This document shows positions 6,078-64,000 of a DNA stretch of 64,000 bases, piece by piece (position 1 is the first letter of the stretch; each line of letters starts with the position of its first letter). The notes under the pieces were generated by a model. The model did no database searches. It had not been told where the DNA came from and saw nothing but the letters and a program-made list of their open reading frames with translations. The DNA lies in NCBI GenBank assembly GCA_900542835.1, contig UQPB01000011.1:3668-67667 (forward strand), in the 5' to 3' direction. The stretch is from an uncultured Pelosinus sp. (GTDB taxonomy: Bacteria; Bacillota; Negativicutes; Sporomusales; Acetonemataceae). The position numbers were made by a program, and so were the translations under genes.

Positions 6078-6086
6078 CAACTGAAA

Positions 6087-6278
6087 AACCTTATTGCAGG
6101 CCGTTCAGAAAGCGCTAGATACTAGGCGGACTCGTGAGCCCAGCAGCGACGCGTACGAAAAGGCACGCTAGCCAAGGGATCGCGAGTCCGTTGCGCAACT
6201 CTTGGCGCTTTAGCGCCTTAGTGTTGACGGCATCCCCCTTGCGGGGAACAACGTAGATAGGGCTTTATCAACGGCCTG
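6087..6278 (+). repeat. Stem-closed structured element, family S, copy 1 (192 bp; candidate small RNA) downstream of the PPIase gene
   Basis: CAGGCCGTT..GAAAGC...GCTTT..AACGGCCTG closing stem; conserved core GATACTAGGCGGACTCGyGAGCCCAGCAGCrACGCGTACGrAAAGGyACGCTAGC shared with copy at 63085. Confidence 0.7.
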
Positions 6279-49694: not shown

Positions 49695-50387
49695 ATGCCG
49701 GGAAAAATTTTAATTGTTGATGATGAGGCGTCCATTCGCGAATTGCTTAAATTCAATCTGGAAAAGGCGGGGTTTTCCGTCGCTGAATGCGGTGATGGCA
49801 ATGAAGCCCTGCAACTAGTCAAATCGCACGCTCCCGAACTGCTGGTGCTTGATCTGATGCTGCCCGGACTTGACGGCATTGAGGTCTGCCGGACGCTGAA
49901 AAGCCATCGCGACACCTCGGGAATCCCCATCATCATGCTGACCGCCAAAAATGAGGAAATCGACAAGATTATTGGTCTGGAGATGGGCGCTGATGATTAC
50001 CTGACCAAGCCGTTCAGCCCACGCGAGCTGGTTGCCCGGGTTAAAGCGGTTCTTCGTCGCAGTCAGATGGGCAGCCCTCAGGAAGGGGAGCTGGTCATTG
50101 GCAAGCTGAAGATGAATTTTAGCCGTTACGAGGTTTTCCTCGGCAATGAAAAACTGGAACTGACGCCAAAAGAATACGAGCTGCTCAAGCTGTTTGTTAC
50201 CAATAGCGGCCGGGTATTCAGCCGTGAAAAACTGTTGGAAAAGATCTGGGGCTATGAATATTTTGGCGATACCCGCACTGTCGATGTCCATGTCCGCCAT
50301 ATCCGGGCCAAACTGGAGCAGGAGCCGGAAATCGCCGAGGCAATCGAGACGGTGCGCGGCGTTGGTTACCGCATGCGGGAGTTTTAA
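49695..50387 (+). CDS. OmpR/PhoB-family response regulator (PhoP/PhoB-like)
   Basis: Receiver (LIVDDE..D..MLPGLDG..K) + winged-helix (RTVDVHVRHIRAKLE); sits directly upstream of pstB-phoU. Confidence 0.85.
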   Translation: MPGKILIVDDEASIRELLKFNLEKAGFSVAECGDGNEALQLVKSHAPELLVLDLMLPGLDGIEVCRTLKSHRDTSGIPIIMLTAKNEEIDKIIGLEMGADDYLTKPFSPRELVARVKAVLRRSQMGSPQEGELVIGKLKMNFSRYEVFLGNEKLELTPKEYELLKLFVTNSGRVFSREKLLEKIWGYEYFGDTRTVDVHVRHIRAKLEQEPEIAEAIETVRGVGYRMREF

Positions 50388-50394
50388 CAAAAAC

Positions 50395-50438
50395 TTAACC
50401 TGGCGTTAACAATGCGGCGGTGGCGAACGTGGTATAGT
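50395..50438 (+). promoter_or_regulatory. Pho-box-like direct repeats (TTAACC-N5-TTAACA) plus extended -10 TGgTATAGT upstream of pstB-phoU
   Basis: Hexamer repeats with 11-bp periodicity as in Bacillus PhoP boxes [TT(A/T/C)ACA]. Confidence 0.5.
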
Positions 50439-50467: not shown

Positions 50468-51223
50468 ATGGACATAAAAATACAGGCTAGTAAACTGAAA
50501 CTATATTATGGCGAAACACTCGCACTGAAGAAAATTTCGCTGGATGTGGAAAAAAACCATGTTCTGGCGCTGATCGGCCCTTCCGGCTGCGGCAAATCGA
50601 CGTTTCTCCGCACGCTGAACCGGATGAACGACCTGATTCCAGGCGTGAAGATCGAAGGCGAAGTGCTGATTGACGGCGAGAATGTCTACCATCCGAATAC
50701 GGATGTGGTTATGCTGCGCAAACGCGTCGGCATGGTCTTTCAGCGCCCCAATCCGTTTCCCATGTCAATTTATGAAAATGTGGTTTATGGCCCCCGCATC
50801 CATGGCCAAAGCTCCCGGCAGAAACTGGACGAGATTGTCGAAAAAAGCCTGACTGCGGCGGCTATCTGGGATGAGGTCAAGGACCGCCTGCGCAGTTCGG
50901 CAATGGGCCTTTCCGGCGGTCAGCAGCAGCGGTTGTGCATCGCCCGGCTGCTGGCGGTCGAGCCGGAAGTCCTGTTGATGGACGAACCGTGTTCGGCGCT
51001 TGATCCGATTTCGACGATGAAGATTGAAGAACTGGTCACAGAGTTGAAACAAAAGTATACGATTGTCATGGTTACCCACAATATGCAGCAGGCCGCCCGG
51101 GTATCGGATCATACAGCTTTTTTCCTGAATGGCGATTTAGTGGAATGCGGCCGCACCGACTCGATGTTCACCAGGCCGCATGATAAGCGTACCGAAGATT
51201 ATATTACCGGCAGATTCGGCTAG
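50468..51223 (+). CDS. pstB: Phosphate ABC transporter ATP-binding protein
   Basis: [22 protein letters not shown], typical PstB length 251 aa; Pho-box-like direct repeats upstream. Confidence 0.9.
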
Positions 51224-51225
51224 GA

Positions 51226-51897
51226 GTGATCACTATGAGTGTGAGGCAAAGTTATGATCATGAATTGGAATCGCTGCGCCAGGATCTGTTGGCTATGGGC
51301 ACGGTTGTCGGTACCGCGATCCAGCAGGCGGTGCAGGCTTTAACCAGCCAGAACACCGATCTGGCCAAGCGGATTATTGCCGGTGACGACCTGGTTGATG
51401 ATATGGAGATCGCCATTGAGGATAAATGCATGGTACTGATTGCCACGCAGCAGCCGCTGGCGCGTGACTTGCGGATTATCGGCGCGGCGATGAAAATCAG
51501 CACCGATCTTGAGCGGATGGGCGATCACGCCTATGATATCGCCAAGGTTGCCTGCCGGCTGGCGGATAAGCCGCCGCTGAAAAAGTTTATCGTCATACCC
51601 CGGATGGCGGAAGTGACCCAGCAAATGCTCAGTCAGGCGCTGGATGCCTACGTCCGGCTGGACACGCTGCTGGCCGAGCAAGTCTGCCGCACGGACGACG
51701 AGGTCGACAGGCTCTATGAGCATGTATTCCGTGAACTGCTGACCTATATGATGGAAGATCCGCGCAATATCTCTCACGCCGCCCAGCTGTTATTTGTGGC
51801 CCGTTATCTGGAGCGGATTGCCGATCATGTGACCAATATTTGCGAGTGGACGATTTTTCTGGCGACCGGACAGCGTATGCGCAAACCCGGCAACTGA
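51226..51897 (+). CDS. phoU: Phosphate transport system regulator PhoU
   Basis: Two PhoU repeats with conserved Asp/Glu (DDxVD, ERMGDHA; ERIADH); ATG 51235 is a better-spaced alternative start. Confidence 0.85.
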   Translation: MITMSVRQSYDHELESLRQDLLAMGTVVGTAIQQAVQALTSQNTDLAKRIIAGDDLVDDMEIAIEDKCMVLIATQQPLARDLRIIGAAMKISTDLERMGDHAYDIAKVACRLADKPPLKKFIVIPRMAEVTQQMLSQALDAYVRLDTLLAEQVCRTDDEVDRLYEHVFRELLTYMMEDPRNISHAAQLLFVARYLERIADHVTNICEWTIFLATGQRMRKPGN

Positions 51898-51946: not shown

Positions 51947-53731
51947 TTATTGTTGCTGTTTGGCCAGCGGCAGGGTAAAGGTAAACGTCGTTCCTTCGTT
52001 GAGTTTGCTCTTGGCCCAGATGCGACCGCCCAGCGCCTCGACAATGAACCGGACGATAGCCAGTCCGAGACCGGTTCCGCCGGCCGAACGGGATCTCGCC
52101 TTCTCAACCCGGTAGAAGCGCTCAAAGATCAGCGGCAGGTCGCCGGCGGGAATGCCGATGCCGGTGTCGCTGACCGAGACCTGGGCCGTTTCGCCGTCCA
52201 ACTGACTGCGGACGGTTATGCTGCCGCCGGCTGGCGTATATTTAATTGCATTGTCCAGCAGGTTCAGCAGCACCTGCTTTAGCCAGTCGGCATTGGCCAA
52301 TACGGTTAGTTCCCCGGCGGGCTCAACTGTCAGTGCCAGTCCCTTGCTCTGCCAGCGCGGCGCCAGTTCCCGGACAATCGTGTCAATAAACCGGTTCAGC
52401 TCGACAGGCTCCAGCCGGACCTGATGACGGTAGTCGCTCGAATCCAGCTTGGCCAGCTGCAGCAGGTCGCCTACCAACCGCTGCATCCGTTCGGCTTCGG
52501 CATGAATAATCTGAAGAAACTTTTGGCTAAGCTCCTGATCGGATAGTGCCCCGTCAAGCAGTGTTTCGGCAAAGCCCTTGATCGCCGTAAGCGGCGTTGC
52601 CAGTTCATGCGAAGCGTTGGCGACGAATTCCACCTGACGCTCATGCACTTCCTGCAAGGCGGTAATATCATGAAAAACGCACAGTACACCGTTGGCTTCG
52701 GTTTCGCCGGCGATGGGAGCCAGTGCGATCTGGAACACCCGTTTTTTGCCGCGCAATTCGTTCTTCATTTCAATGGATTGATGCCTGTTGGAGGCGACGG
52801 TCTCCTGCAGGGAACGGTCAAATGCCGTATTGGCGATGATCTGGATATTGTGCTTGCCGAGCATGGCAGGCGTAACGCCAAAGGTGGTAGCTGCCATTTC
52901 ATTATAGGTTTCCATCCGGCCATAGCGGTCAAACAAAATGACGGCATTATCCATATGGGCCAGAATCAGCTCCAGCTTGCGTTTTTCCGCCAGGGTTTCG
53001 TTTACCGTATCGTCAAGACTGGATGCCAGCTTATTCAACGTATGCGCCAGCAGCTCAATTTCATCGCCGGTATGGATATGCACCCGCTTATCAAGGTGTC
53101 CCTGGGCCATTTCCTGGGCAACGCGGGTGATCTCCTCCAGCGGCGAGGTAAATTTTCCAGCCAGACGGATACTGATCAAGACCGCCAGCAGCGAGGTCAG
53201 CGCGAACGCCGCCAGCAGCACGGAGCGGATATTGGCAAAGCTGGCCTCCAGCGGCGTCAGACTGCTGGCGACGCGGACAACGCCGGCCACGCGGCCCTGT
53301 TGCAGCAGCGGTACGGCGGTATAAAGGAAGTTCTCGCTCAGCGTCGCGCTGTAGCGGATGAAGCTGCCTGTATTTCCCGACAGGGCGGCGGCTACCTCCG
53401 GCCGGTCGTGGTGGTTGTCGAAGATTTCCGGCGGTTCATAGGAGTCGGCAATTACCTGACCTTCGGCGGTAATGATCGTGATCCGCAGCGGAATTTGCTG
53501 ATGCAGTTCCTTGACTTTTTCATCCAGCTGCGGCCGGCTTAACGGTGATAGATAATAGTCGCGGACCAGCTCTTCGGTGATGCGGGCCTGTGTGATCAGC
53601 TGTGTTGTCAGGCTGGCGACATTGGTGCGGTGAAAATACCAGAGAATATAGGCGCCCAGCGTTGCCAGCGCTCCCACTGTCAACAGCAGCAGTGTAATGA
53701 TTAACCGGGTTCTGATGCTTTGCGTCAGCAT
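51947..53731 (-). CDS. Sensor histidine kinase, PhoR-like (TM - extracytoplasmic domain - HAMP - PAS - HisKA - HATPase)
   Basis: HisKA H-box VANASHELATPLTAIKG, N/G1/G2 boxes; start at internal Met MLTQSIR (53729-53731) with RBS aaaggagcgg. Confidence 0.8.
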   Translation of the reverse strand: MLTQSIRTRLIITLLLLTVGALATLGAYILWYFHRTNVASLTTQLITQARITEELVRDYYLSPLSRPQLDEKVKELHQQIPLRITIITAEGQVIADSYEPPEIFDNHHDRPEVAAALSGNTGSFIRYSATLSENFLYTAVPLLQQGRVAGVVRVASSLTPLEASFANIRSVLLAAFALTSLLAVLISIRLAGKFTSPLEEITRVAQEMAQGHLDKRVHIHTGDEIELLAHTLNKLASSLDDTVNETLAEKRKLELILAHMDNAVILFDRYGRMETYNEMAATTFGVTPAMLGKHNIQIIANTAFDRSLQETVASNRHQSIEMKNELRGKKRVFQIALAPIAGETEANGVLCVFHDITALQEVHERQVEFVANASHELATPLTAIKGFAETLLDGALSDQELSQKFLQIIHAEAERMQRLVGDLLQLAKLDSSDYRHQVRLEPVELNRFIDTIVRELAPRWQSKGLALTVEPAGELTVLANADWLKQVLLNLLDNAIKYTPAGGSITVRSQLDGETAQVSVSDTGIGIPAGDLPLIFERFYRVEKARSRSAGGTGLGLAIVRFIVEALGGRIWAKSKLNEGTTFTFTLPLAKQQQ

Positions 53732-54034
53732 AATCCGCTCCTTTAGTTCGTATTGTTTAGGGCAGTCGCTTATGACAGTCTTCTGAACTGCAAACAGGCG
53801 TGAGGTTGAAAATGTGTAAACCGGAAACACTATAGTCAGCCATTCCGCATTGGCGGCGCACCTGCTTGTACAGATGCACTAGGGACTGCTTCTGGTTCAG
53901 CACAGCTTTTTCCTGTTCCGGATAGCACGGCTCAGCATTATTCCAATAAACAAATGAGTCCGATTATCTTAACAGTAGAGGATATTTGCCAGAAATACAA
54001 GATGCTGCTACAATATATCCTGTTGCCCGGCGAT

Positions 54035-54118: not shown

Positions 54119-55255
54119 GTGTCGCAGCGACGTAGGACCATATTGCTGGCGTCGGCTTCGATCGGTTCCGGCCACATGCAGGCCGCGAAGGCGATCGAGA
54201 CCGCCTGGCGGGAGGCCTTTCCCGCGGACGAAGTCATTGTCGCCGATTCCATGGATGGCGGCAGTTCCTATGTACAGCATGTGCTTAAGGAAACCTACCT
54301 CAAAATGATTGCCGTAACACCGTTTCTTTATGACACGCTGTACCATCTTTCCCAGGGGCTGAGTCCGGGTTCGCGCGGGCAAAGCCTGTTTTCCTGGTTT
54401 ATGCAAAAGACCATGCAGCAGTTGTACAGCCGGCATCAGCCGGACCTGGTCATTTGTACCCACCCATTCCCCTGTGCGGCCATGGCTTATTTAAAACGCC
54501 ACCACCGTATCAGCGCCCCCCTTGCCGGGGTAATCACCGATTTTGCCGTTCATGGCACCTGGATCTACCCGGAGACGGATTTATATACGGTAGCCGCCGA
54601 CGAGCTAAAAGCAGAGCTGGTTGGGCGGGGCATCGCCGCCGACCGTATCGATGCCTGCGGCATCCCCGTGCAGCCGCCGCTGCCGCCGGCAGCAGCCGAT
54701 TATCAAAAGCTGGGGCTGCAGCCCGGATTGCCTGTCGTTATGCTGATGGGAGGCGGTCTTGGCCTTGGTCCGCTGCGGGAAGTGCTGCTTGCACTTGATT
54801 CAGTTGCGGTACCGCTGCAGATTGCCGCTGTCGCCGGCAATAATTCCGGCCTGCAGCAGGAACTCAGTGCGGCTGCTGCCGGGCTGCGCCATCAGACCAC
54901 TGTTTTCGGCTATACGCCATATGTGCGGGAACTGATGCAAGCCGCCGCTCTTTTGATCACCAAGCCGGGGGCGCTGACAATCAGCGAAGCTCTGGCTGCA
55001 GGACTGCCGATGCTGTTGTTTCAATCCTTTCCCGGTCAGGAGACGGACAATGCTGCTTTCTTGCTTGAGCGGGGCGCTGCCGGCTGGTTTGAGCCGGACG
55101 GGGCGGAACAGATCGTCCGGCTTCTGACAGACAGCGGCGAGCGCCGCCAGGCTCTTGCCGCGATCAACCGGATTGCCCGGCCCGCTTCTGCCAAAGCGGC
55201 TGTGGCGGCTATCGCCGCCCGGCTGCTGCCAGCGGGGCAGGCCGCAGGTATGTAG
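54119..55255 (+). CDS. Glycosyltransferase, MGDG-synthase / UgtP-like (GT28 family) diacylglycerol glycosyltransferase
   Basis: N-terminal RTILLASASIGSGHMQAAKAI (MGDG synthase N-domain) and C-terminal GT-B nucleotide-binding half; GTG start; Pho-box-like repeats upstream. Confidence 0.7.
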   Translation: MSQRRRTILLASASIGSGHMQAAKAIETAWREAFPADEVIVADSMDGGSSYVQHVLKETYLKMIAVTPFLYDTLYHLSQGLSPGSRGQSLFSWFMQKTMQQLYSRHQPDLVICTHPFPCAAMAYLKRHHRISAPLAGVITDFAVHGTWIYPETDLYTVAADELKAELVGRGIAADRIDACGIPVQPPLPPAAADYQKLGLQPGLPVVMLMGGGLGLGPLREVLLALDSVAVPLQIAAVAGNNSGLQQELSAAAAGLRHQTTVFGYTPYVRELMQAAALLITKPGALTISEALAAGLPMLLFQSFPGQETDNAAFLLERGAAGWFEPDGAEQIVRLLTDSGERRQALAAINRIARPASAKAAVAAIAARLLPAGQAAGM

Positions 55256-55273
55256 CGTAAAGGAGATGGCTGT

Positions 55274-55999
55274 ATGCAACTGCAGGAGATCGCGGAGGCT
55301 TCCATGGTCGGCGGCGTCAAGCTGCTGCTGGCGACAGCGGCACCGCTGCAGACATTGTTTGATAAACCCTGCGTTACACATGTGTTCTGCAACCGTCAGG
55401 CAATAACGATCCTGTCGGCAGATGGTTTTTATGACAGCGCCGCTTTTTACTTGCGCTACCTTGAGGCGCTGAACGCTGGCGTAGCCTGGGCTGATCAGGG
55501 GTGGAAGAACGTCAATCATTATTTTTCCCCCGACTCACGTCAGGGCTTGTGGTATTTCTCCACCGCTGTTGCCGAATTCAACCGTTATTTTAACCACAGC
55601 ATTCGCTGCATGCGGCGGGCCGATCCGGCCGGAGCCTGCTTTCTGCTTGGAGCGGCGGCGCATTTACTGCAGGATCTGTGTGTGCCGCATCATGCCAGAG
55701 GCAAAGTGTTCTGCGGCCACAAACAATATGAGGATTGGGCGGGACGGCATTACAGCCGCTTTGCTGCCGGCAGCGGCGGCATATACCGCCCCGGCCGTGC
55801 CGAATCCCTGCTGCTTGCCAATGCCGCGGTCAGCGCCGATTTGTTCAGCCAGGTCGCCAGTGAGCATGACGAAGCCTCCTATCAGGCGGCGACAGCGATC
55901 CTGCTGCCGCTGGCGCAGCGGACAACAGCGGGGCTGCTGCTGCGTTTTTATCAGCAAATGTGCCAGAGAATGCCCAGCCACGCGGTCTTTGTTGCCTAG
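55274..55999 (+). CDS. Zinc-dependent phospholipase C domain protein (cytoplasmic or membrane-associated, no signal peptide)
   Basis: THVFCNRQAI and LQDLCVPHHARG align with the Zn-ligand segments of B. cereus PLC / C. perfringens alpha-toxin N-domain; 18-nt gap after the glycosyltransferase gene. Confidence 0.6.
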   Translation: MQLQEIAEASMVGGVKLLLATAAPLQTLFDKPCVTHVFCNRQAITILSADGFYDSAAFYLRYLEALNAGVAWADQGWKNVNHYFSPDSRQGLWYFSTAVAEFNRYFNHSIRCMRRADPAGACFLLGAAAHLLQDLCVPHHARGKVFCGHKQYEDWAGRHYSRFAAGSGGIYRPGRAESLLLANAAVSADLFSQVASEHDEASYQAATAILLPLAQRTTAGLLLRFYQQMCQRMPSHAVFVA

Positions 56000-56045: not shown

Positions 56046-56099
56046 TTAACAAAAACGTAACAATCGCTTAACATATCGGCATTGGCGATGCGGTAATAT
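56046..56099 (+). promoter_or_regulatory. Triple Pho box (TTAACA-N5-GTAACA-N5-TTAACA) and -10 TAATAT upstream of pstS
   Basis: Three hexamers at exact 11-bp spacing, -10 about 20 nt downstream. Confidence 0.55.
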
Positions 56100-56144: not shown

Positions 56145-57002
56145 ATGAATTTCAAAAAAGTTATTGCTTTCGCCGCGGTTGCCGCTTTATCCGCCGGTCT
56201 GATTGCCGGCTGCGGCGGCTCCAAGGAGGCGCCGAAACAGGCAGCCCAGCCGCAGGGTATTGAAGGCAAGGTATCCGCATCCGGGTCCAGCGCGCTGCTG
56301 CCGCTGCTAAAAGCCGCCCAGGAAGATTTTCAGAAAAAGAATGCCAAGGTTACGGTTAATATTTCCGCCGGCGGTTCGTTTACCGGTCAAAACCAGGTAG
56401 CGTCCGGCGCTGTTGATATCGGTAACTCTGATGTTGCCCTGCAGGACAGTCTGAAGGACAAAGGCCTGATTGAACATAAGCTGGTCGGTATTCCGTTTGT
56501 CTTTATTGCTAATCCTTCTGTAAGTGTCGATTCGCTGACCGAACAGCAATATGTGGATATCCTGACCGGTAAAATTACCAACTGGAAGGATGTCGGCGGC
56601 AAAGACGAGAAAATTACGATCCTCAGCCGGGCTAAATCATCCGGTTCGCGGGCGACCATCGAGCAAGTTGTACTCAAAGGCAAATCGATTACCGATAATG
56701 TTGTCATTCAGGATTCCAACGGCGCGCTCCGGACCGCGGTTGCCACAACTCCCGGTTCTATCGGCTACGTTGACGCCGCCTACGTGGATAAAACTGTAAA
56801 AGGCCTGAAATACAATGGTGTGGAGTATTCGATCGATAACGTTACCGGCGGCAAGTATCCGGTATTCTCCTTTGGCCGCATGTTTACCAAAGGACAGCCG
56901 GCAGGCGCGGTGAAGGCGTTTATCGATTACGCGACCAGCAAGGAATTCCAGGAAGCCTTTGCTGAAAAGAACGGCTTTATTCCGGTTACGAAAATGAAAT
57001 AG
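56145..57002 (+). CDS. pstS: Phosphate ABC transporter substrate-binding lipoprotein
   Basis: Lipobox LIAGCGGS; PstS/PBP family-2 phosphate-binding motifs (SGSSA, GYVD); three PhoP-type boxes upstream. Confidence 0.85.
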   Translation: MNFKKVIAFAAVAALSAGLIAGCGGSKEAPKQAAQPQGIEGKVSASGSSALLPLLKAAQEDFQKKNAKVTVNISAGGSFTGQNQVASGAVDIGNSDVALQDSLKDKGLIEHKLVGIPFVFIANPSVSVDSLTEQQYVDILTGKITNWKDVGGKDEKITILSRAKSSGSRATIEQVVLKGKSITDNVVIQDSNGALRTAVATTPGSIGYVDAAYVDKTVKGLKYNGVEYSIDNVTGGKYPVFSFGRMFTKGQPAGAVKAFIDYATSKEFQEAFAEKNGFIPVTKMK

Positions 57003-57043: not shown

Positions 57044-57107
57044 CAGCCTCCGGCTAATTGCCCGCATACACCTGTATACGGCGACGGGCCGGAGGCTGTG
57101 GTGTTTT
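57044..57107 (+). terminator. Terminator/attenuator after pstS (CAGCCTCCGG...CCGGAGGCTG + TGGTGTTTTT), preceded by a small hairpin CTCCCT-GCGT-AGGGAG
   Basis: 10-bp stem with large internal loop and T-run; typical partial terminator separating pstS from downstream pst genes. Confidence 0.65.
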
Positions 57108-57133
57108 TGAATAAACAAGAAAATAGGTGTCGT

Positions 57134-58915
57134 ATGAACCGTAAACTAAACCAAGCCTGGCTAACGATAAGGCAGTGGCGGCTTGTCCCGCCGGCAGTGT
57201 TTCAATTGGCGAAGATTAGTTTGCAAAAAAAGATGCTTCTGGTTGTCGGTCTGCTTACCTGTGTCTCTATTTGTGTGGCGATTGTTGGCCTGCGGGGCAT
57301 TGCGACAGCTAACGACCGGCTGCGCGAGACCTACCAGCTGCGGATTGTTCCTTTTACCGAATTGAAGGCAGTTAATGATAATTATGTGATGATCATTGAT
57401 ACTACCCACAAGCTTAGGAATGGCAACATGACCTGGCAGGTTGCCGGTGAACGGCTGGAGGCTGCGACCAGGGCGATCGAGCTGCACTGGGCCAACTATC
57501 AGGCAAAGGGCGGCAGCGGCGAGCGGCAGTTAATCGCTCAGATTGAAATGCAGTTTGGTATTGCCAACACGGAGTTAGAAAATCTTAAACGGATTGTCGG
57601 CAGTCAGGATATGAATGCGCTGGCTGATTTTATGATTAATGTCATGTATTCGGGCATAGAACCGATTTCGGTGCAAATATCCGCCCTGATTGACTGGGAG
57701 CTGCAGGCGGCGCGTGAGGATTACGAGGCTGCTCAGGAACATTACCGGCTGCAGGCGGGATTGTTTATCGCCCTCGTCGCCGCCGGACTTGTGCCGGCAC
57801 TTGGCTTTTCCCTTGCCGTTATCCGGCTGACGCTGCTGCCGATACGGGAAATGGTAACGGCAGTAGAACAGATCGCTGTCGGCAACCTGGCAGTCAACCG
57901 GATGGAAGTTGTCAGTAACGACGAGGTCGGCCGCCTGGGAGCCGCTATCAATACGATGCTGGGCAATCTTAACCGGCTGGTCGAGCAGGTACGGCTTTCG
58001 GCCGGTAAGGTTGCCGCGGCTTCGGCGGAGACAGTCGCCGCTGCCGGCGGCGTGGAACAGACCGCAGCCGGCCTGCTTGACGGCAGCCGGCAACTGCACC
58101 GGCATGCCAATGAGGGCAGCGGTTCAATTGTGGAAGTAGCAAAGGTACTGGTTGAATTGTCCTCCTTGCTGGAAATTGCCCGCATCCGCGCCGAATCGAC
58201 TGCTGAAAAGGCGGTTGAGACAACACAGGCCACGCTGGAAGGCAAAACCGCTGTGGCTGCGACTGTTATGCGGATGCAGGAAATCGAACGGAAAACAGTT
58301 GATACCGAAAGCCGCATACAGACCCTGGAAGAGTACTCCCGCCAGATTGCGCTGATTAACCAGACCATTACCGGGATTGCCGCCCAGACAAATCTACTGG
58401 CACTTAACGCGGCGATCGAGGCGGCGCGAGCAGGGGAGGCCGGCCGCGGCTTTGCCGTTGTCGCCCGCGAGGTGACGAGCCTTGCCGAGCAATCCCGCAG
58501 CGGGGCTAGACAGGTTTCCGAACTGGTGGAAAAAATTTCGCAGGGAACCGCCGCCGTTGTCTGCGGCATCGATGAAAGCCGCCAGCTGGCGGCTGAGGGC
58601 GTGGAACTGGCGGCCGCGGCCGGCGGCCGGCTTGATCATATTGTGCAAACCGTTGGCGCCAGCAGCCGGGAAATCAACGGCGTTCTGGAAGTAACGCAGG
58701 AAGATGTGGCTCAATCGGAGCGTATCATCGAACTCATCGATTCGCTGGCGACGATTATTGAAAGCACAGCGACCAATGCCCGGCAGGTAACTGCGGCTGC
58801 GCAGCAGACCTCGACCATAATGGCTTCGCTGACCGCGGCGGCGGAGGAATCCAATTCGCTGGCGGCCGGTCTGCGTTCAGAGATTGGCTATTTCCAGACA
58901 GAACAGGAGGCTTAA
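57134..58915 (+). CDS. Methyl-accepting chemotaxis protein with 4-helix-bundle (4HB_MCP) sensor, HAMP and MA domains
   Basis: Two TM segments flanking a ~170-aa periplasmic domain; HAMP; highly conserved MA signalling domain ([24 protein letters not shown]). Confidence 0.85.
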
Positions 58916-58917
58916 CG

Positions 58918-59229
58918 ATGGATGTAACCGTAGAAGACGGCCGGGCAGTCATGCGCATAGCCGGCGAGTTTCAGGGAAAAAACGCCGCTGACGTGCGCGA
59001 CGCGCTGCTCGCATGCCTGCAGGATGGCCATCGTCATGTTGTGATCGATCTGAGTGGCGTCAGCCTGATCAATGCCACCGGAATCGGCGTTCTGGTCAGC
59101 GTCCAGCAGCGCTTGGAGGCGCTGGGAGGCAAGCTGAGCCTGTATGGTCTGGAGCAGCCGGTCGGCCAGGTGCTCGAGCGAACCCGGCTTCACCGCAGCT
59201 TCGATAGTGAACCGCCGGCCGAATCTTAA
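58918..59229 (+). CDS. STAS-domain protein (anti-sigma-factor antagonist, SpoIIAA/RsbV-like)
   Basis: 103 aa; DLSGVSLINATGIGVL matches the SpoIIAA phospho-loop region (Thr instead of Ser); ATG 3 nt after the MCP stop codon, RBS inside the MCP 3' end. Confidence 0.7.
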   Translation: MDVTVEDGRAVMRIAGEFQGKNAADVRDALLACLQDGHRHVVIDLSGVSLINATGIGVLVSVQQRLEALGGKLSLYGLEQPVGQVLERTRLHRSFDSEPPAES

Positions 59230-59249
59230 CAAAAAATTAACATGAAATT

Positions 59250-59282
59250 AATAGAATCGGAATTGTTGTCCATTATAATTCT
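59250..59282 (+). promoter_or_regulatory. Putative internal promoter (-10 TATAAT at ~59274, AT-rich UP-like tract) upstream of the leader element and pstC
   Basis: TATAAT read directly; -35 weak; lies in the 265-nt gap between the STAS gene and pstC. Confidence 0.35.
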
Positions 59283-59297
59283 TGTGAAGAGTCTTGG

Positions 59298-59452
59298 TAA
59301 GCGATGATTAAATGAACCGGTCAGGCAGGCGAAAATTTTTTCACCTGGCAAGGAAGCGAGAGCGCAGGAAGAGCAGCTCTTTCAAGGTCTTGCTGACGCA
59401 GCCAGACGGCAACAGCTCCGCCAGCTTGGGCTGCGTGACTTAATCAGTGCTG
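59298..59452 (+). repeat. MITE-like structured element, family L, copy 2 (leader of pstC-pstA-EAL/GGDEF inside the pst operon)
   Basis: See family L description; ends 42 nt before the pstC ATG; TATAAT 20 nt upstream. Confidence 0.75.
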
Positions 59453-59494
59453 ACCTTGCGCTTGTGTCAATGCGAATAAGGATGTGAACATTTA

Positions 59495-60388
59495 ATGCCG
59501 GCAATCGATCAGGGAAGCAGCCACAAACTGAAGCTGATGTATGACAACTATATCCGGATGCTGTTTGTGGCTTCCGCTGCGTTAATGGCAGTGATTATTT
59601 TTGCGATCATTTTGTTTATCGGCCAGCAGGGGCTGCTGACCTTTAAAGAAGTCACGCCGCTGGAGTTTTTCCTGTCAGCAAAATGGGACCCGACTGACGG
59701 CCGTTACGGCGCCTTAAGCTTTATTCTCGGCTCAATCTGTACGACCTTTCTCGCCGTGCTCATCGGTGCGCCGCTGGGACTGGCGGGAGCGGTTTTCCTG
59801 GCTAAGATCGCTCCCCAGAGCGTCAGACGGTTCATGCGCCCGGCAACGGATTTATATGTAGCCGTGCCGTCAGTTGTTTACGGCTATATCGGGCTTACCG
59901 TTCTTATTCCGTTTATCCGCGTGCATTTTGACGCCGGATCGGGATTTGGACTGCTGGCAGCATCGCTGATACTGGCGGTTATGATTCTGCCGACCGTTAT
60001 TACTATTTCCGAGGACGCCATTCGTTCTGTGCCGGCAAATCTGGAGGAAGCGTCGCTGGCTCTCGGCGCTACCCGCTGGCAGACTGTTCGCCGCGTCCTG
60101 CTGCCGGCGGCGGCTCCCGGCATTCTAACGGCGATTATCCTGGCTATGGCCAGGGCGATTGGCGAAACAATGGCGGTGCAGATGGTAATCGGCAACACGC
60201 CGCTGCTGCCCAAGTCGCTGCTGACACCGACCGCAACCCTTACCAGTGAAATTGTTGTTGAGATGGGCAATACGCCGTTTGGGTCGACCTGGGGCAACTC
60301 CCTGTTCTTAATGGCGCTGGTCCTGCTGGCTATTTCCTTATTGATGATTGTGTGCATCCGTCATATCGGCAAGAGGAGGTTTGCCTGA
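59495..60388 (+). CDS. pstC: Phosphate ABC transporter permease
   Basis: 6 TM, EAA-like loop EEASLALGATRWQTVRRVLLP; typical PstC. Confidence 0.9.
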   Translation: MPAIDQGSSHKLKLMYDNYIRMLFVASAALMAVIIFAIILFIGQQGLLTFKEVTPLEFFLSAKWDPTDGRYGALSFILGSICTTFLAVLIGAPLGLAGAVFLAKIAPQSVRRFMRPATDLYVAVPSVVYGYIGLTVLIPFIRVHFDAGSGFGLLAASLILAVMILPTVITISEDAIRSVPANLEEASLALGATRWQTVRRVLLPAAAPGILTAIILAMARAIGETMAVQMVIGNTPLLPKSLLTPTATLTSEIVVEMGNTPFGSTWGNSLFLMALVLLAISLLMIVCIRHIGKRRFA

Positions 60389-61245
60389 TGTCGCCTCGGT
60401 TTAGCGATAAATTAGCAACTGCAGTCATGTGGCTTGCGGCGTTGCTGATTCTTGGCATCCTGTTCTGCTTTTTGGGGTATATGCTGATCCAAGGCCTGCC
60501 GGTTCTGTCCTGGAATTTCATTTTCGGCATGTCGAGCGATACTCAGGCCGGCGGCGGCGTCGGTCCGCAGCTGTTCAATTCGTTTTATATCCTGATCCTA
60601 TCGCTGGCGTTTGCCATTCCTGTGGCTGTCGGTGCCGGCATTTATCTGGCTGAATACGCCTCGGACAACTGGCTGACCAATCTGGTCCGGCTCAGCACGG
60701 AAAGCCTGGCTACCGTTCCGTCCATCGTACTCGGTCTGTTCGGAATGATCGTATTTGTCAATATAGCCGGCTTTGGTATCAGCATTATTGCCGGCTCGCT
60801 GTCACTGATGCTGTTAAACCTGCCGGTACTGGTACGGGTAACGGAAGAATCGCTGCGGACGGTTCCGGCTTCTTTCCGTGAAGCCAGCCTGGCGCTGGGG
60901 GCGACCAAGTGGCAAACCATCTGGCGTGTCATTCTGCCTAATGCCCTGCCGGGAATTATTACCGGTGTAACCCTGACTGCCGGCAGGGCCCTGGGCGAAA
61001 CCGCCATTCTTATTTTTACCGCCGGCACCACCGTGTCGCGCAATTTGCCTGATATCGACCTGCTAGCCTCGGGCGAGACGCTGGCTGTGCATATGTGGTA
61101 TGTCATGGCGCTAGGCCTGGTGCCTGACCGGCTGGATATCGCCAACGGCATTGGCGCACTGCTGATTATTGTAGTGCTGCTGTTTAATCTCGCACTGACT
61201 GTGCCTGCTGAATTGATGCGGCGCCGCATGGGCGGCGGCCGTTGA
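60388..61245 (+). CDS. pstA: Phosphate ABC transporter permease
   Basis: TGATG overlap with pstC stop; EAA loop REASLALGATKWQTIWRVILP. Confidence 0.9.
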   Translation: MSPRFSDKLATAVMWLAALLILGILFCFLGYMLIQGLPVLSWNFIFGMSSDTQAGGGVGPQLFNSFYILILSLAFAIPVAVGAGIYLAEYASDNWLTNLVRLSTESLATVPSIVLGLFGMIVFVNIAGFGISIIAGSLSLMLLNLPVLVRVTEESLRTVPASFREASLALGATKWQTIWRVILPNALPGIITGVTLTAGRALGETAILIFTAGTTVSRNLPDIDLLASGETLAVHMWYVMALGLVPDRLDIANGIGALLIIVVLLFNLALTVPAELMRRRMGGGR

Positions 61246-61259
61246 CAGGAGAGAGAAAT

Positions 61260-63050
61260 ATGCCTGGCGATTTTACAATACCTGACCCTGATTCGCACAC
61301 GGATTCCGTGGAGGCTGAACTACGGTCAATTATCGCCAATCGCGATATTTATACCGTGTTTCAGCCGATTGTTTCGCTGACTGACGCCACGATTATCGGC
61401 TACGAAGCGTTAAGCCGCGGCCCTGCGGGTTCGTCGCTGGAGCAGCCCGACCGTCTGTTTGCCGCTGCCGCCGCTTTGGACCTGCTGTGGGAACTGGATC
61501 TCTTATGCCGCTTCCGGGCGTTGGAGACGGCCAACGGCCTGCTGGAAAACTATCTGCTGTTCATCAATGTCGACCCCAAGATCATCAATGACCCGCGGTT
61601 TCAGAAAGGCTTGACCCGCGGCTATTTAAACGCCGCCGCGCATGATATTCTGGGCATTGTCTTTGAAATCACCGAGAAGACGGCGGTGCAGGATTATAAA
61701 GCATTTCGCCGCATTCTCGACAATTATACCAGTCAGGGCTATCAGATTGCGCTTGATGATACCGGTTCCGGTTATTCCGGCCTCACCTTGCTGGCAGAGA
61801 CTCGGCCGCAGTATGTCAAGCTGGATATGGAGCTGGTCAGGCATATTGACAAGGATTCGCTGAAGCAGGCCCTGATCCGCTCTCTGTGCCAGTTTGCCGA
61901 CGCCAGCAATATTAAGCTGATCGCCGAAGGCATTGAGACTGTCAACGAGCTGGAGTGCCTGATCGACATCGGTGTTCATTATGGTCAGGGCTTTTTTCTG
62001 CAGCGGCCGGCCGCCGGACCTATTGCTCTCAATGCGGCTATGGTACTGCATATCCGCGAGCGGAATGACGCAAAGCAAAGGCAAATGTTCTGTCCGACTC
62101 TATCTGTTCCTATCGGTGAGATCGCCCGCCGTGATCCCTCGTTTCCGCCGCAGGCGTCGGGCCAGGAAATGATTGCTTATTTTAATCGCAATCCGGCGGT
62201 ACAGGGAATTCCGATTGTTGAGAACGGCAGGCCGCTGGGATTATTATCAAAGCATAAGTTTCTTGGCCACCTGGCTACGCAATACGGTGTCGCCATTTAT
62301 ATGAACCGCCCGGTACATCTTCTGATGGATAAAAATCCGTTGATTGTCGACTGGAGTACGCCGCTGGAGCAGGTGAGCACATTTGCCGTGGCCCGTTCGG
62401 ACGAACGCCTGTATGATTATATCATTGTCACCCAGGATAACGCCTATTACGGCATAACCACCGTAAAAGCGCTGCTGGAAAAAACCACTCAGTTAGAAGT
62501 TACCCGGGCGAAATACGCAAATCCCCTGACCGGGCTGCCAGGCAACTTTCTGATTGAGCAGGAATTGAAGCGGGCTGTCTGCGACGGTCAGGATTATGCG
62601 GTGCTGTATTTTGACCTGGATAATTTCAAGGCCTATAATGACCTATATGGATTTGAGAATGGTGATAAAATTCTTATCTTTACAGCGCAGACAATTCAAG
62701 CCGGCCTGGACCAATATCAGCCGTCCGGGGCTTTTTTGGGCCATATCGGCGGCGATGATTTTGTTGCTGTAATCAAGAATGATAACGCAGCCGGCTTATG
62801 TGAAGCGATTATTGCCGCATTTGACCGCCAGATAGGCGCTTTTTACAGTGAGCGAGACCGTGAGCAGGGATTTGTTATCTCCAAGAACCGGCATGGCAGT
62901 GACGAACAGTTCCCTTTGATTTCGATCTCAATCGGTGTGGTTACCGGCCGTCGCAATCGCTTTACCAGCCATCTGCAGATTGGCGAAGCCGCCAGCCTGG
63001 TCAAGAAGGAGTGCAAGCTGACCTGGCAGAGCTGCTATCATATCGCCTGA
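61260..63050 (+). CDS. c-di-GMP phosphodiesterase-type protein: EAL domain - CBS pair - degenerate GGDEF (GGDDF) domain
   Basis: EAL motifs intact (EALSR, DDTGSGYSG, EGIET, QGFFLQRP); central tandem CBS-like segments; GGDEF domain with NPLTGLPGN, DLDNFKAYND but active-site GGDDF; begins 12 nt after the pstA stop. Confidence 0.85.
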   Translation: MPGDFTIPDPDSHTDSVEAELRSIIANRDIYTVFQPIVSLTDATIIGYEALSRGPAGSSLEQPDRLFAAAAALDLLWELDLLCRFRALETANGLLENYLLFINVDPKIINDPRFQKGLTRGYLNAAAHDILGIVFEITEKTAVQDYKAFRRILDNYTSQGYQIALDDTGSGYSGLTLLAETRPQYVKLDMELVRHIDKDSLKQALIRSLCQFADASNIKLIAEGIETVNELECLIDIGVHYGQGFFLQRPAAGPIALNAAMVLHIRERNDAKQRQMFCPTLSVPIGEIARRDPSFPPQASGQEMIAYFNRNPAVQGIPIVENGRPLGLLSKHKFLGHLATQYGVAIYMNRPVHLLMDKNPLIVDWSTPLEQVSTFAVARSDERLYDYIIVTQDNAYYGITTVKALLEKTTQLEVTRAKYANPLTGLPGNFLIEQELKRAVCDGQDYAVLYFDLDNFKAYNDLYGFENGDKILIFTAQTIQAGLDQYQPSGAFLGHIGGDDFVAVIKNDNAAGLCEAIIAAFDRQIGAFYSERDREQGFVISKNRHGSDEQFPLISISIGVVTGRRNRFTSHLQIGEAASLVKKECKLTWQSCYHIA

Positions 63051-63056
63051 TCCTTA

Positions 63057-63083
63057 CAGACGCGCAAGCGTCTTGTTTTGTTG
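63057..63083 (+). terminator. Terminator hairpin AGACGC-GCAA-GCGTCT + TGTTTTGTT after the EAL-GGDEF gene (copy 1 of a 26-bp direct repeat)
   Basis: Read directly; an identical copy is at 63221-63247. Confidence 0.6.
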
Positions 63084-63084
63084 A

Positions 63085-63220
63085 AACCTTATTTTCAGGC
63101 CGTTCAGAAAGCCCCGGATACTAGGCGGACTCGCGAGCCCAGCAGCAACGCGTACGGAAAGGTACGCTAGCAATGGGATTGCCGAGGCAACAACGTAAGT
63201 GGGGCTTTATCAACGGCCTG
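63085..63220 (+). repeat. Stem-closed structured element, family S, copy 2 (136 bp) flanked by a duplicated terminator
   Basis: Same ends and core as copy 1; compensatory changes in closing stem (GCTA/TAGG vs CCCG/GGGG); 26-bp direct repeats on both sides. Confidence 0.7.
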
Positions 63221-63247
63221 CAGACGCGCAAGCGTCTTGTTTTGTTT
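63221..63247 (+). terminator. Second identical copy of the terminator hairpin (direct repeat flanking the inserted element)
   Basis: 26/26 nt identical to 63057-63082. Confidence 0.6.
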
Positions 63248-63262
63248 GGCCTGCGCCCGCTG

Positions 63263-63293
63263 CGCATGAGCCGGCCCTTTTTCCGCCATACTA
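63263..63293 (+). promoter_or_regulatory. Forespore-type (sigma-F/G-like) promoter candidate GCATGA-N18-CATACTA for the second SpoIID paralog
   Basis: -10 CATACTA matches CATnnTA; -35 GCATG resembles GnATA; low certainty. Confidence 0.3.
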
Positions 63294-63317
63294 GTAAAAA
63301 CGGATGGGGGAATGGAT

Positions 63318-64000
63318 ATGCGTTTGATGAGATGGCGACTGGTAATCGCCGTTCTTGTTATGCTGTCGTTGGGCCTGAGCGGCTGCAATTTATTCAAATC
63401 ACCGCAGCAGAAGCCGCTGACGCCGCAGCCGCAGCAGGAAGCACAGGCAAAGGAGCCGGATATTACTGTCTACATGCATGAAACCGGCGAAAAAAAGACA
63501 ATGAAAATGGAGGACTACATTGCCGGCGTAGTCGCCGGTGAAATGAAGCCTGACTGGCCGGTAACGGCGCTGGCGGCTCAGGCAATTATCGCCAGAACCT
63601 TTACCCTGGAAGCAATTGAGACAAAGGGTGGCGTCAAGGAGCGCGGCACGCAGGCTTCGACCGATATTAAAGAGTTTCAGGCTTATAACGGCAAGGCTGT
63701 CAATGATAATATCCGCAAAGCTGTGGAGATGACGCGCGGCATGGTTGCGGTTTATCAGGGCAAACCGATCAAGGCCTGGTTCCATGCCAGCGCCGGCGGA
63801 CAGACGGCGTCGGCTAAGGAGGGGCTGGCGTACAATGAAGCCGAACCGCCGTATATCCGGCCGGTGCAGTCGCCGGATGATCTGGCTCCTGCGGATATAA
63901 AAAATTGGGAAGCCCGCTTTACCAAGGAGGAAGTGATCGCCGCCTTGCAGAAAAGCGGCAAGCAGGTTAATGATATTGCCAGTATGAGTATTGCCGAAAA
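63318..64000 (+). CDS. SpoIID/LytB-domain protein (second SpoIID paralog), 3'-partial
   Basis: Signal peptide/lipobox (LSGCN), Gln/Pro-rich linker, SpoIID domain motifs (PDWPVTALAAQAIIARTF, AWFHASAGGQTAS); runs off the window end. Confidence 0.7.
   Translation, partial: MRLMRWRLVIAVLVMLSLGLSGCNLFKSPQQKPLTPQPQQEAQAKEPDITVYMHETGEKKTMKMEDYIAGVVAGEMKPDWPVTALAAQAIIARTFTLEAIETKGGVKERGTQASTDIKEFQAYNGKAVNDNIRKAVEMTRGMVAVYQGKPIKAWFHASAGGQTASAKEGLAYNEAEPPYIRPVQSPDDLAPADIKNWEARFTKEEVIAALQKSGKQVNDIASMSIAE

Follow-up and report, generated by a model that had tools for sequence, protein, structure and literature searches.

An EAL-CBS-GGDDF protein encoded behind pstCA in Sporomusaceae as a probable RapA-family c-di-GMP phosphodiesterase of the Pho regulon

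Locus and gene

The window analyzed here, 64,000 nucleotides (nt) of contig UQPB01000011.1 from an uncultured Pelosinus sp. (assembly GCA_900542835.1), carries a gene directly downstream of the phosphate transporter permease genes pstC and pstA whose product combines an EAL domain, a pair of CBS domains and a GGDEF-like domain with the motif GGDDF, and thus concerns the turnover of cyclic di-GMP (c-di-GMP). The open reading frame marked by an initial annotation of this DNA is real: it encodes 596 amino acids (aa) counted from ATG, and a deposited protein from a Sporomusaceae metagenome-assembled genome matches its product at 100% identity. The upstream gene is pstA, as had been proposed, and PstA (262 bits against a cut-off of 193) and PstC both exceed their NCBIfam equivalog cut-offs. 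The pstA stop codon occupies 61243-61245, which leaves a gap of 14 nt to the ATG at 61260 and not the 12 nt first given. Within the gap lies the gene's own ribosome-binding site, AGGAGAGAG, in agreement with the same annotation. A TTG at 61242 was considered as the start codon and ruled out, since the identical deposited protein and all homologues start at the ATG; the ATG is also favored because the ribosome-binding site precedes it. Coordinates of the features are collected in Table 1.

No strong terminator was found between pstA and the gene, and one is present 3' of the gene. Co-transcription with pstCA is therefore plausible. Together with a Pho box at 59226, the 14-nt gap and the hairpin and T-run at 63058 point to a pstC-pstA-gene transcription unit. 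A near-consensus sigma-70-like match inside the gene (62611-62639, TTGACC-17-TATAAT, 11/12) is probably not a promoter, because it coincides with the codons for the conserved FDLDNFKAYND motif and is not followed by an in-frame Met. Rfam searches of both strands of 59200-64000 returned no riboswitch, c-di-GMP riboswitches included, and no known RNA near the gene.

Table 1. Features of the phosphate island and of the EAL-CBS-GGDDF gene, in order of position in the window.
Feature	Position	Strand	Basis or remark
PhoB/PhoP-like OmpR-family response regulator	49695..50387	+	PhoB TIGR02154, 270 bits, just below cut-off 296; Pfam
Third Pho box, upstream of pstB-phoU (50468-51897)	50384..50411	+	Pattern scan
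PhoR/PnpS-like sensor histidine kinase	51947..53830	-	NF046044 PnpS, 412.6 bits, cut-off 400
Second Pho box, upstream of pstS (56145-57002)	56046..56073	+	Pattern scan
PhoP-type Pho box (TTAACA AAAAA TTAACA TGAAA TTAATA)	59226..59253	+	Putative promoter of pstC-pstA-gene operon
pstC, phosphate ABC transporter permease	59495..60388	+	TIGR02138, 292.6 bits, cut-off 196
pstA, phosphate ABC transporter permease	60352..61245	+	TIGR00974, 261.7 bits, cut-off 193
Ribosome-binding site AGGAGAGAG	61247..61255	+	Inside 14-nt pstA-to-ATG gap, read from sequence
EAL - CBS pair - GGDDF protein gene, RapA/PA3258 family	61260..63050	+	Open reading frame, Pfam, homology
EAL domain, complete catalytic residue set	61317..62009	+	aa 20-250, Pfam E 8e-49
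CBS pair (Bateman module)	62112..62495	+	aa ~285-412, Pfam first CBS and AlphaFold model
Complete GGDEF-fold domain, GGDDF clade, without RxxD I-site	62520..63047	+	aa 421-596, Pfam, model, Foldseek, profile alignment
GGDDF motif	62748..62762	+	aa 497-501; D500 in place of canonical fourth-position Glu
Intrinsic-terminator-like hairpin AGACGCGCAAGCGTCT, then T-run	63058..63082	+	8 nt past stop codon

Domain architecture

Pfam and predicted structures confirmed the domain order that had been read from the sequence, with EAL first, then a CBS region, then a GGDEF-like domain bearing GGDDF. In addition to the EAL match, Pfam recognizes the first CBS domain only, at aa 285-338 (E 2e-6, with a score that clears the gathering threshold), and assigns aa 422-513 to GGDEF (E 2e-15), where positions 5-96 of the 161 in the profile are matched. 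The E-values exclude chance as the source of these matches. The nearest solved relative of the EAL domain is a Vibrio EAL phosphodiesterase, 6ifq. The CBS region, which does align with a CBS profile, is located at aa ~285-412 and not at the aa ~330-450 originally assigned to it. The top NCBIfam match, RimA, reaches 152.7 bits against an equivalog cut-off of 430 and covers the EAL domain only. The names RimA, DibA, PdeR and others from that collection were rejected, as all are far under their cut-offs and reflect the EAL domain alone.

An AlphaFold model of aa 265-415, built from 25 family sequences, has a predicted local distance difference test (pLDDT) score of 84.6 and matches whole CBS-pair structures over ~131-137 columns (template modeling (TM) score 0.65-0.70, E ~1e-8), among them AcuB, Arabidopsis CBSX1/2 and human CBS. 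HHalign of the first against the second CBS half matched 13 columns only, with a probability of 62%. As modeled, the region is two tandem CBS folds that form one Bateman module. Its resemblance to the AMP/ADP/ATP-binding AcuB and to CBSX, a similarity of fold only, would be the link to an adenosyl ligand. For aa 412-596, Foldseek aligned the model (pLDDT 89.4) with solved diguanylate cyclases over ~185 columns; the TM scores to WspR, DgcB, SiaD and PleD were 0.67-0.73, and an Idiomarina phytochrome cyclase was also matched. The modeled GGDEF fold is complete despite the partial Pfam match, which is partial because of a family-specific insert (NRHG..E).

Membership in the RapA/PA3258 family

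BLASTP against Pseudomonas aeruginosa PA3258 gave an end-to-end alignment with 34% identity over 571 aa (E 1e-111, 94% coverage), and the two proteins have ANPLT.LPGN and GHIGGDDF in common. The domain order within ~600 aa, the end-to-end homology and the GHIGGDDF motif all identify the protein, on sequence grounds, as a member of the RapA/PA3258 family, an affiliation that the initial annotation had missed along with membership in the Pho regulon, although its domains and motifs stood. Full-length matches in Proteobacteria were also obtained by tblastn of plasmid records. A P. aeruginosa record (CP075839.1, our locus L001) has prc, fklB and rdgC as neighbors of the family gene, an arrangement that identifies the PA3258 locus. 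This record is labeled 'plasmid pPALO11' but has the chromosomal order prc - PA3258 - fklB - rdgC, and it looks mislabeled or chimeric.

PA3258 has been described as an EAL-CBS-GGDEF protein whose P. fluorescens homologue, RapA, depletes c-di-GMP on phosphate starvation (PMC12900916), and as a putative orthologue of RapA (PMC9394441). RapA is expressed at low phosphate from a PhoB-bound Pho box, cleaves c-di-GMP to pGpG, behaves as a net phosphodiesterase in vivo and triggers loss of the LapA adhesin through LapD/LapG (PMC3032545). Orthology to RapA of strain Pf0-1 is drawn from the literature and from P. koreensis-group loci such as L052. The Pelosinus protein has the same EAL - CBS pair - GGDDF order as RapA and PA3258, with GHIGGDDF invariant, and is predicted to share with RapA the control by the phosphate-starvation regulator through a Pho box and the net hydrolysis of c-di-GMP. 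Unlike these two it comes from a different phylum (Negativicutes, Sporomusaceae), and its gene is apparently fused into a pstC-pstA operon, whereas the RapA gene stands alone behind its own box. The type of box differs as well, with Gram-positive PhoP TTAACA repeats in place of the CTGTCAT of RapA, and the Lap adhesin output of RapA would not be expected for the Pelosinus protein.

Active site of the EAL domain

The motifs EAL, DDTGSGYSG, EGIET and QGFFLQRP are present as the initial annotation stated. Conservation was scored in an alignment of 122 sequences, comprising the query, 119 homologues at 50-83% identity, PA3258 and a Ralstonia homologue. Every catalytic position (E49, R53, N103, E136, E139, D166, D167, K187, E223, E226 and Q243) is invariant in this alignment, so that the Glu of EAL, the Arg, the Asn, ExxE, DD, Lys, EGxE, the Gln and the loop-6 motif DDxGxGYS are all in place. 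RapA, the Pseudomonas family member, is described as a verified c-di-GMP phosphodiesterase (PMC3032545; bioRxiv 10.1101/198481). With the invariant catalytic set and this precedent, the active EAL phosphodiesterase that had been predicted is very likely.

The same residues bear on whether the protein might be catalytically inactive and serve as a c-di-GMP receptor or scaffold in the manner of LapD or FimX. Altered motifs in dual-domain GGDEF-EAL proteins often go with a receptor function, and Bordetella DdpB (BB2957), which like the Pelosinus protein has two CBS domains between EAL-type and GGDEF-type domains and carries GGDDF, has ESL for EAL and no reported activity (PMC12805831). In contrast, the Pelosinus protein retains EAL and the full catalytic set, and its intact and invariant catalytic residues and loop-6 motif make a receptor role extremely unlikely.

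The GGDDF domain is a conserved clade

The GGDEF-like domain was at first called degenerate, and this description does not hold for the family. GGDDF departs from the canonical cyclase motif [G/A/S]G[D/E]E[F/Y], yet it is found in 120/120 of the best homologues and also in PA3258 and the Ralstonia homologue. A motif-independent HMMER search with aa 262-596 against 1.84 billion cluster representatives (50% clusters) returned 1193 representatives at E <= 1e-30. Among the best 150 of these, GGDDF occurs in 145, and neither GGDEF nor GGEEF occurs in any. We conclude from this invariance, across homologues and unbiased representatives alike, that GGDDF is a clade signature under selection and not a product of decay.

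Apart from the fourth motif residue, the positions that bind substrate and metal are those of a cyclase. D452, K457, N460, D469, G497-F501, K582 and K586 are invariant in the 122 sequences. When the family profile is aligned with solved active cyclases, GHIGGDDF (encoded within GHIGGDDFVAV at 62739-62771) falls on GrvGGEEF / RlGGDEF, D500 falls on the fourth-position Glu, and FDLDNFKAYNDxYGxxxGD aligns with the canonical DxDxFKxxNDxxGHxxGD. The metal-, guanine- and phosphate-binding residues of a canonical cyclase are thus present, together with the complete fold. The RxxD I-site, five residues before the motif, is absent, and positions 487-490 are variable in the 122 sequences. This site is common in diguanylate cyclases and not obligatory. 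NPLTGLPGN and the NRHG..E insert are conserved features specific to the clade.

The GGDDF domain is carried by ~1,200 clusters (50% identity) and occurs in three forms. A scan of one genome per species, using a profile of the CBS2-GGDDF region, yielded at least 80 loci; one scan pattern was GHIGGDDF, and the motif frequency among the scanned loci is biased for that reason. Among the loci listed and L001-L005 there are ~50 EAL-CBS-GGDDF, 13 CBS-GGDDF and 22 REC-GGDDF architectures, the latter two confirmed by Pfam. CBS-GGDDF proteins are hosted by Bacillus, Lysinibacillus, Paenibacillus and Cohnella (L007, L010, L013, L014, L017, L020, L027, L038, L072, L077). REC-GGDDF proteins are response regulators of ~310-330 aa from Clostridia, Thermincola, Elusimicrobia and Omnitrophota (L025-L036, L040-L043, L055, L076, L080, L084, L085), and in them GGDDF is the only output domain. 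The invariant catalytic-type residues and the existence of EAL-less proteins with GGDDF as the only output domain argue against a merely decayed domain.

Two members of the survey have unusual architectures. A Desulfitobacterium protein of 730 aa (L060:8534-10723) has an extra short GGDDF-containing segment ahead of EAL, and an Aromatoleum open reading frame of 1130 aa (L073:7433-10822) apparently consists of two tandem EAL-CBS-GGDDF units, or is a fusion.

Possible functions of the C-terminal module

Two roles for the CBS-GGDDF module, a regulatory GTP binder and an active cyclase in a bifunctional protein, carry roughly equal weight. In the bifunctional case, an active GGDDF cyclase would stand beside an active EAL phosphodiesterase and the CBS pair would select between them by a metabolite. 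This possibility, which we hold tentatively, is compatible with Pho control and departs from a phosphate-starvation phosphodiesterase, the reading preferred here, only in the role of the C-terminal module. It would account for the invariance of D452, K457, N460, D469, D499, K582 and K586, all aligned with solved active cyclases, for the complete fold with solved diguanylate cyclases as its nearest structural matches, and for the REC-GGDDF proteins in which GGDDF is the sole output. The GGDDF domain of Geobacter GSU1937 is active in vivo (PMC8835794), and PA3258 with its phosphodiesterase disabled shows apparent residual cyclase activity and phenotypes in Salmonella (PMC12900916). The initial annotation had regarded cyclase activity with GGDDF as evidence that would overturn its model, and these published in vivo data may in part supply it. 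According to the GSU1937 authors, the fourth-position Glu works across the dimer as a catalytic base, and Asp retains the carboxylate; the shorter Asp may, however, not reach (PMC8835794). Also against an active cyclase, RapA is a net phosphodiesterase in vivo (PMC3032545), and PA3258 is reported to have given no rise in c-di-GMP and no cyclase phenotypes in P. aeruginosa (cited in PMC8835794). A literature search yielded no biochemical assay of any GGDDF-clade member and, for the EAL-CBS-GGDEF architecture, nothing biochemical beyond the PA3258 phenotypes; in the literature searched, this architecture and GGDDF in c-di-GMP proteins are seldom named.

The model of the initial annotation, in which a catalytically dead GGDEF-like domain binds GTP and allosterically activates the EAL phosphodiesterase while the CBS pair senses an adenylate, is likewise held tentatively. 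Its precedent is the GTP-activated phosphodiesterase CC3396 (PdeA) of Caulobacter, a GEDEF-EAL protein reported to have phosphodiesterase activity only (cited in PMC8835794). CC3396 resembles the Pelosinus protein in having an altered GGDEF domain beside an active EAL domain, and the GGDEF-like domain is plausibly GTP-binding. In the Pelosinus protein the guanine- and phosphate-binding residues are kept, there is no I-site, and the CBS pair resembles, in its fold only, the nucleotide-binding Bateman modules of AcuB and CBSX. The proteins differ in that CC3396 has the order GGDEF-EAL instead of EAL, CBS, GGDDF, reads GEDEF, lacks a CBS pair and has a degenerate domain outside any conserved stand-alone clade. 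The model also leaves unexplained both the metal-binding and catalytic-type acidic residues that are invariant across >1000 clusters and the GGDDF domains that have no EAL partner.

A third proposal assigns the GGDDF clade a different nucleotide from c-di-GMP as its product or ligand, in which case the protein would link two messenger systems. The motif change is invariant and clade-specific, the conserved NPLTGLPGN and NRHG..E features are likewise specific to the clade, and weak Pfam matches to the Cas10 palm were seen (E 0.27 for the query, 0.0011 for a Bacillus CBS-GGDDF homologue), although these are below threshold. GSU1937, which shares the GGDDF motif, contributes to the synthesis of cyclic GMP-AMP (cGAMP) (PMC8835794). 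GSU1937 belongs, however, to the Hypr type, makes cGAMP and lacks EAL and CBS domains. Its base-specifying residue is Ser, whereas the Pelosinus protein has Asp (D469) there. This Asp is canonical for the guanine type and invariant, which argues for guanine and not adenine nucleotides, and we regard the proposal as improbable.

Pho boxes and synteny

The whole window was scanned for TTAACA-N5-TTAACA-N5-TTAACA with up to 3 mismatches. The triple repeat occurs 3 times in 64 kb against an expectation of 0.01, and all three copies are on the + strand directly upstream of pstB, pstS and pstC, each with a -10-like hexamer ~20 nt downstream. For the box ahead of pstC, this hexamer is TATAAT at 59274-59279, 20 nt downstream. 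The repeats match the Bacillus PhoP box, which consists of TT(A/T/C)ACA repeats with an 11-bp periodicity. A box of this type stands in the putative promoter of the operon, as it does before the gene itself in another Pelosinus genome.

The arrangement was compared in related genomes. In Anaerosporomusa subterranea the genes follow the identical order, the gap is 17 nt, and the same box is in the same place (L003:6109). In Dendrosporobacter quercicolus, the gene lies between a phospholipase C gene and pstS. In the other Pelosinus genome, its neighbors are the kinase gene and pstS, and it is preceded by a Pho box of its own, TTAACAAAAAGATAACCTAGGCTTAACA (L005:7877-7904), with TAAAAT 20 nt further. 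The varied positions inside the pho cluster indicate that the association between the gene and this cluster survives rearrangement in three other genera.

Among more distant loci, a CTGTCAT-type box (CTGTCAT-N4-CTGTCAT-like, often with three half-sites) was found upstream of 20/32 proteobacterial loci listed compared with 1.3% of control windows (binomial p 4e-30), boxes being scored here and below by simple mismatch counting. The taxa include P. aeruginosa, P. koreensis, Pseudoalteromonas, Methylophilaceae, Thiomicrorhabdus, Janthinobacterium, Rheinheimera and Billgrantia. A TTAACA-type box precedes 8/47 of the non-proteobacterial loci listed compared with 0.7% of control windows (p 2e-9). 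Every box-bearing locus listed has the EAL-CBS-GGDDF architecture, and no Pho box was found upstream of the REC-GGDDF and CBS-GGDDF loci listed. Either a box or pst genes within 10 kb are present at 33/50 EAL-CBS-GGDDF loci, at 1/13 CBS-GGDDF loci and at 0/22 REC-GGDDF loci among those listed.

General physical linkage to pst outside Sporomusaceae was considered and rejected, since it holds for only ~5/80 distant loci listed: four have clear pst genes at a distance of up to 10 kb, and two more give weak matches. These include Paenibacillus L038, where the gene follows pstSCAB-phoU, and Desulfitobacterium L060, where a pst operon is divergent from a phospholipase C gene and the family gene. As pst linkage is rare in distant loci, the family-wide link is regulatory, through the boxes, and not positional.

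Adjacency to pstA could also be fortuitous and the protein a housekeeping c-di-GMP enzyme free of phosphate regulation. Many genomes carry large numbers of dispersed GGDEF and EAL genes, and the Dendrosporobacter gene lacks a box directly upstream. The pho/pst linkage that persists through rearrangement, the gene's own box in Pelosinus, the strong enrichment of boxes upstream of the family across phyla and the experimental precedent of RapA (PMC3032545) make a fortuitous adjacency very improbable.

The phosphate island and a downstream repeat element

The pst system of the window is split. pstB-phoU lies beside the response regulator gene, ~5 kb upstream of pstS, and two further genes (57098-59229), for a methyl-accepting chemotaxis protein (MCP) and then a STAS protein, separate pstS from pstC-pstA. 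Each of the three pst pieces has its own Pho box. The response regulator presumably acts on the TTAACA boxes. Four Sporomusaceae genomes have an MCP gene within the pst cluster (in relatives at L003:3901-3950, L004:13091-15205 and L005:10919-13042), and the MCP gene of Anaerosporomusa has its own TTAACA Pho box. The MCP may be a phosphate-starvation-induced chemoreceptor, possibly PstS-dependent. Genes for a glycosyltransferase like monogalactosyldiacylglycerol synthase and for a Zn-dependent phospholipase C (54119-55999) form a pair that is kept in the pho islands of relatives, which suggests that glycolipids replace phospholipids under phosphate starvation.

Downstream of the gene, a structured intergenic element of ~140 nt (63083-63222) lies between exact copies of a 26-nt terminator-like hairpin, CAGACGCGCAAGCGTCTTGTTTTGTT (63057-63082 and 63221-63246). 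Its predicted fold is closed by a long helix (z -3.0), and a search of Rfam with the copy at 63083-63222 returned nothing. A second copy at 6086-6278 has 88% identity and an insertion of ~60 nt and is likewise located just past a stop codon. By eye, Anaerosporomusa has the element at the same place in the opposite orientation (L003:9792-10000). It could be a repeat like a miniature inverted-repeat transposable element or repetitive extragenic palindrome, or a small-RNA family.

Proposed role

The domain identity, the intact EAL active site, the homology to PA3258, the operon-like layout, the Pho boxes and the synteny lead us to consider it likely that the gene is a Sporomusaceae RapA/PA3258-family member of the Pho regulon and encodes a phosphate-starvation c-di-GMP phosphodiesterase. 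Its induction by phosphate limitation, its enzymatic activity, the downstream phenotype and the part played by CBS-GGDDF are what we infer from them. At low phosphate, the adjacent PhoR-like kinase and PhoP-like regulator would activate the TTAACA-repeat promoter at 59226, and a single transcript would carry pstC, pstA and the EAL-CBS-GGDDF gene. The EAL domain would then hydrolyze c-di-GMP to pGpG, and cellular c-di-GMP would fall. By analogy with RapA, cells may shift from attachment to motility and foraging; a chemoreceptor gene lies in the same cluster. The CBS pair and GGDDF, as a conserved C-terminal module, may bind a guanine nucleotide and tune the net c-di-GMP output, or may have catalysis of their own.

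Several observations weigh against this role. If GGDDF is an active cyclase, the net activity could be synthesis. PA3258 is reported to have given no phenotype in P. aeruginosa transposon and overexpression screens (cited in PMC12900916). The TTAACA repeats are candidate PhoP-type boxes, assigned by their likeness to the Bacillus consensus and their exclusive placement before pst genes, and the Dendrosporobacter gene has no box directly upstream. At the thresholds used, about a third of the EAL-CBS-GGDDF loci have neither a box nor pst linkage, and the locus statistics take in many related Pseudomonas species, which are not independent.

Vibrio cholerae AcgA and AcgB, PhoB-regulated c-di-GMP enzymes, are another tie between the Pho regulon and c-di-GMP turnover. 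They belong to unrelated domain families with a different architecture and have no full-length homology to the Pelosinus protein.

With a phosphate-starvation phosphodiesterase as the preferred reading, the link between phosphate starvation and c-di-GMP known from Pseudomonas RapA would extend to Negativicutes and, by the box survey, to many other lineages, and this points to the EAL-CBS-GGDDF protein as an output of the Pho regulon that is widely conserved. What is added to current knowledge is the apparent operonic fusion to pstCA in Negativicutes and a Pho control of this architecture that is apparently widespread across phyla. We speculate, with some reserve, that GGDDF defines a catalytically active GGDEF branch and that its EAL form is an ancient phosphate-starvation switch conserved in several phyla, in which the CBS pair chooses between making and breaking c-di-GMP in response to a metabolite of phosphate or energy status. 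GGDDF marks a conserved clade, for which the annotation of a dead GGDEF domain should be avoided, and 'RapA-family, Pho-associated phosphodiesterases' could replace 'GGDEF domain-containing protein' as the annotation of such proteins.

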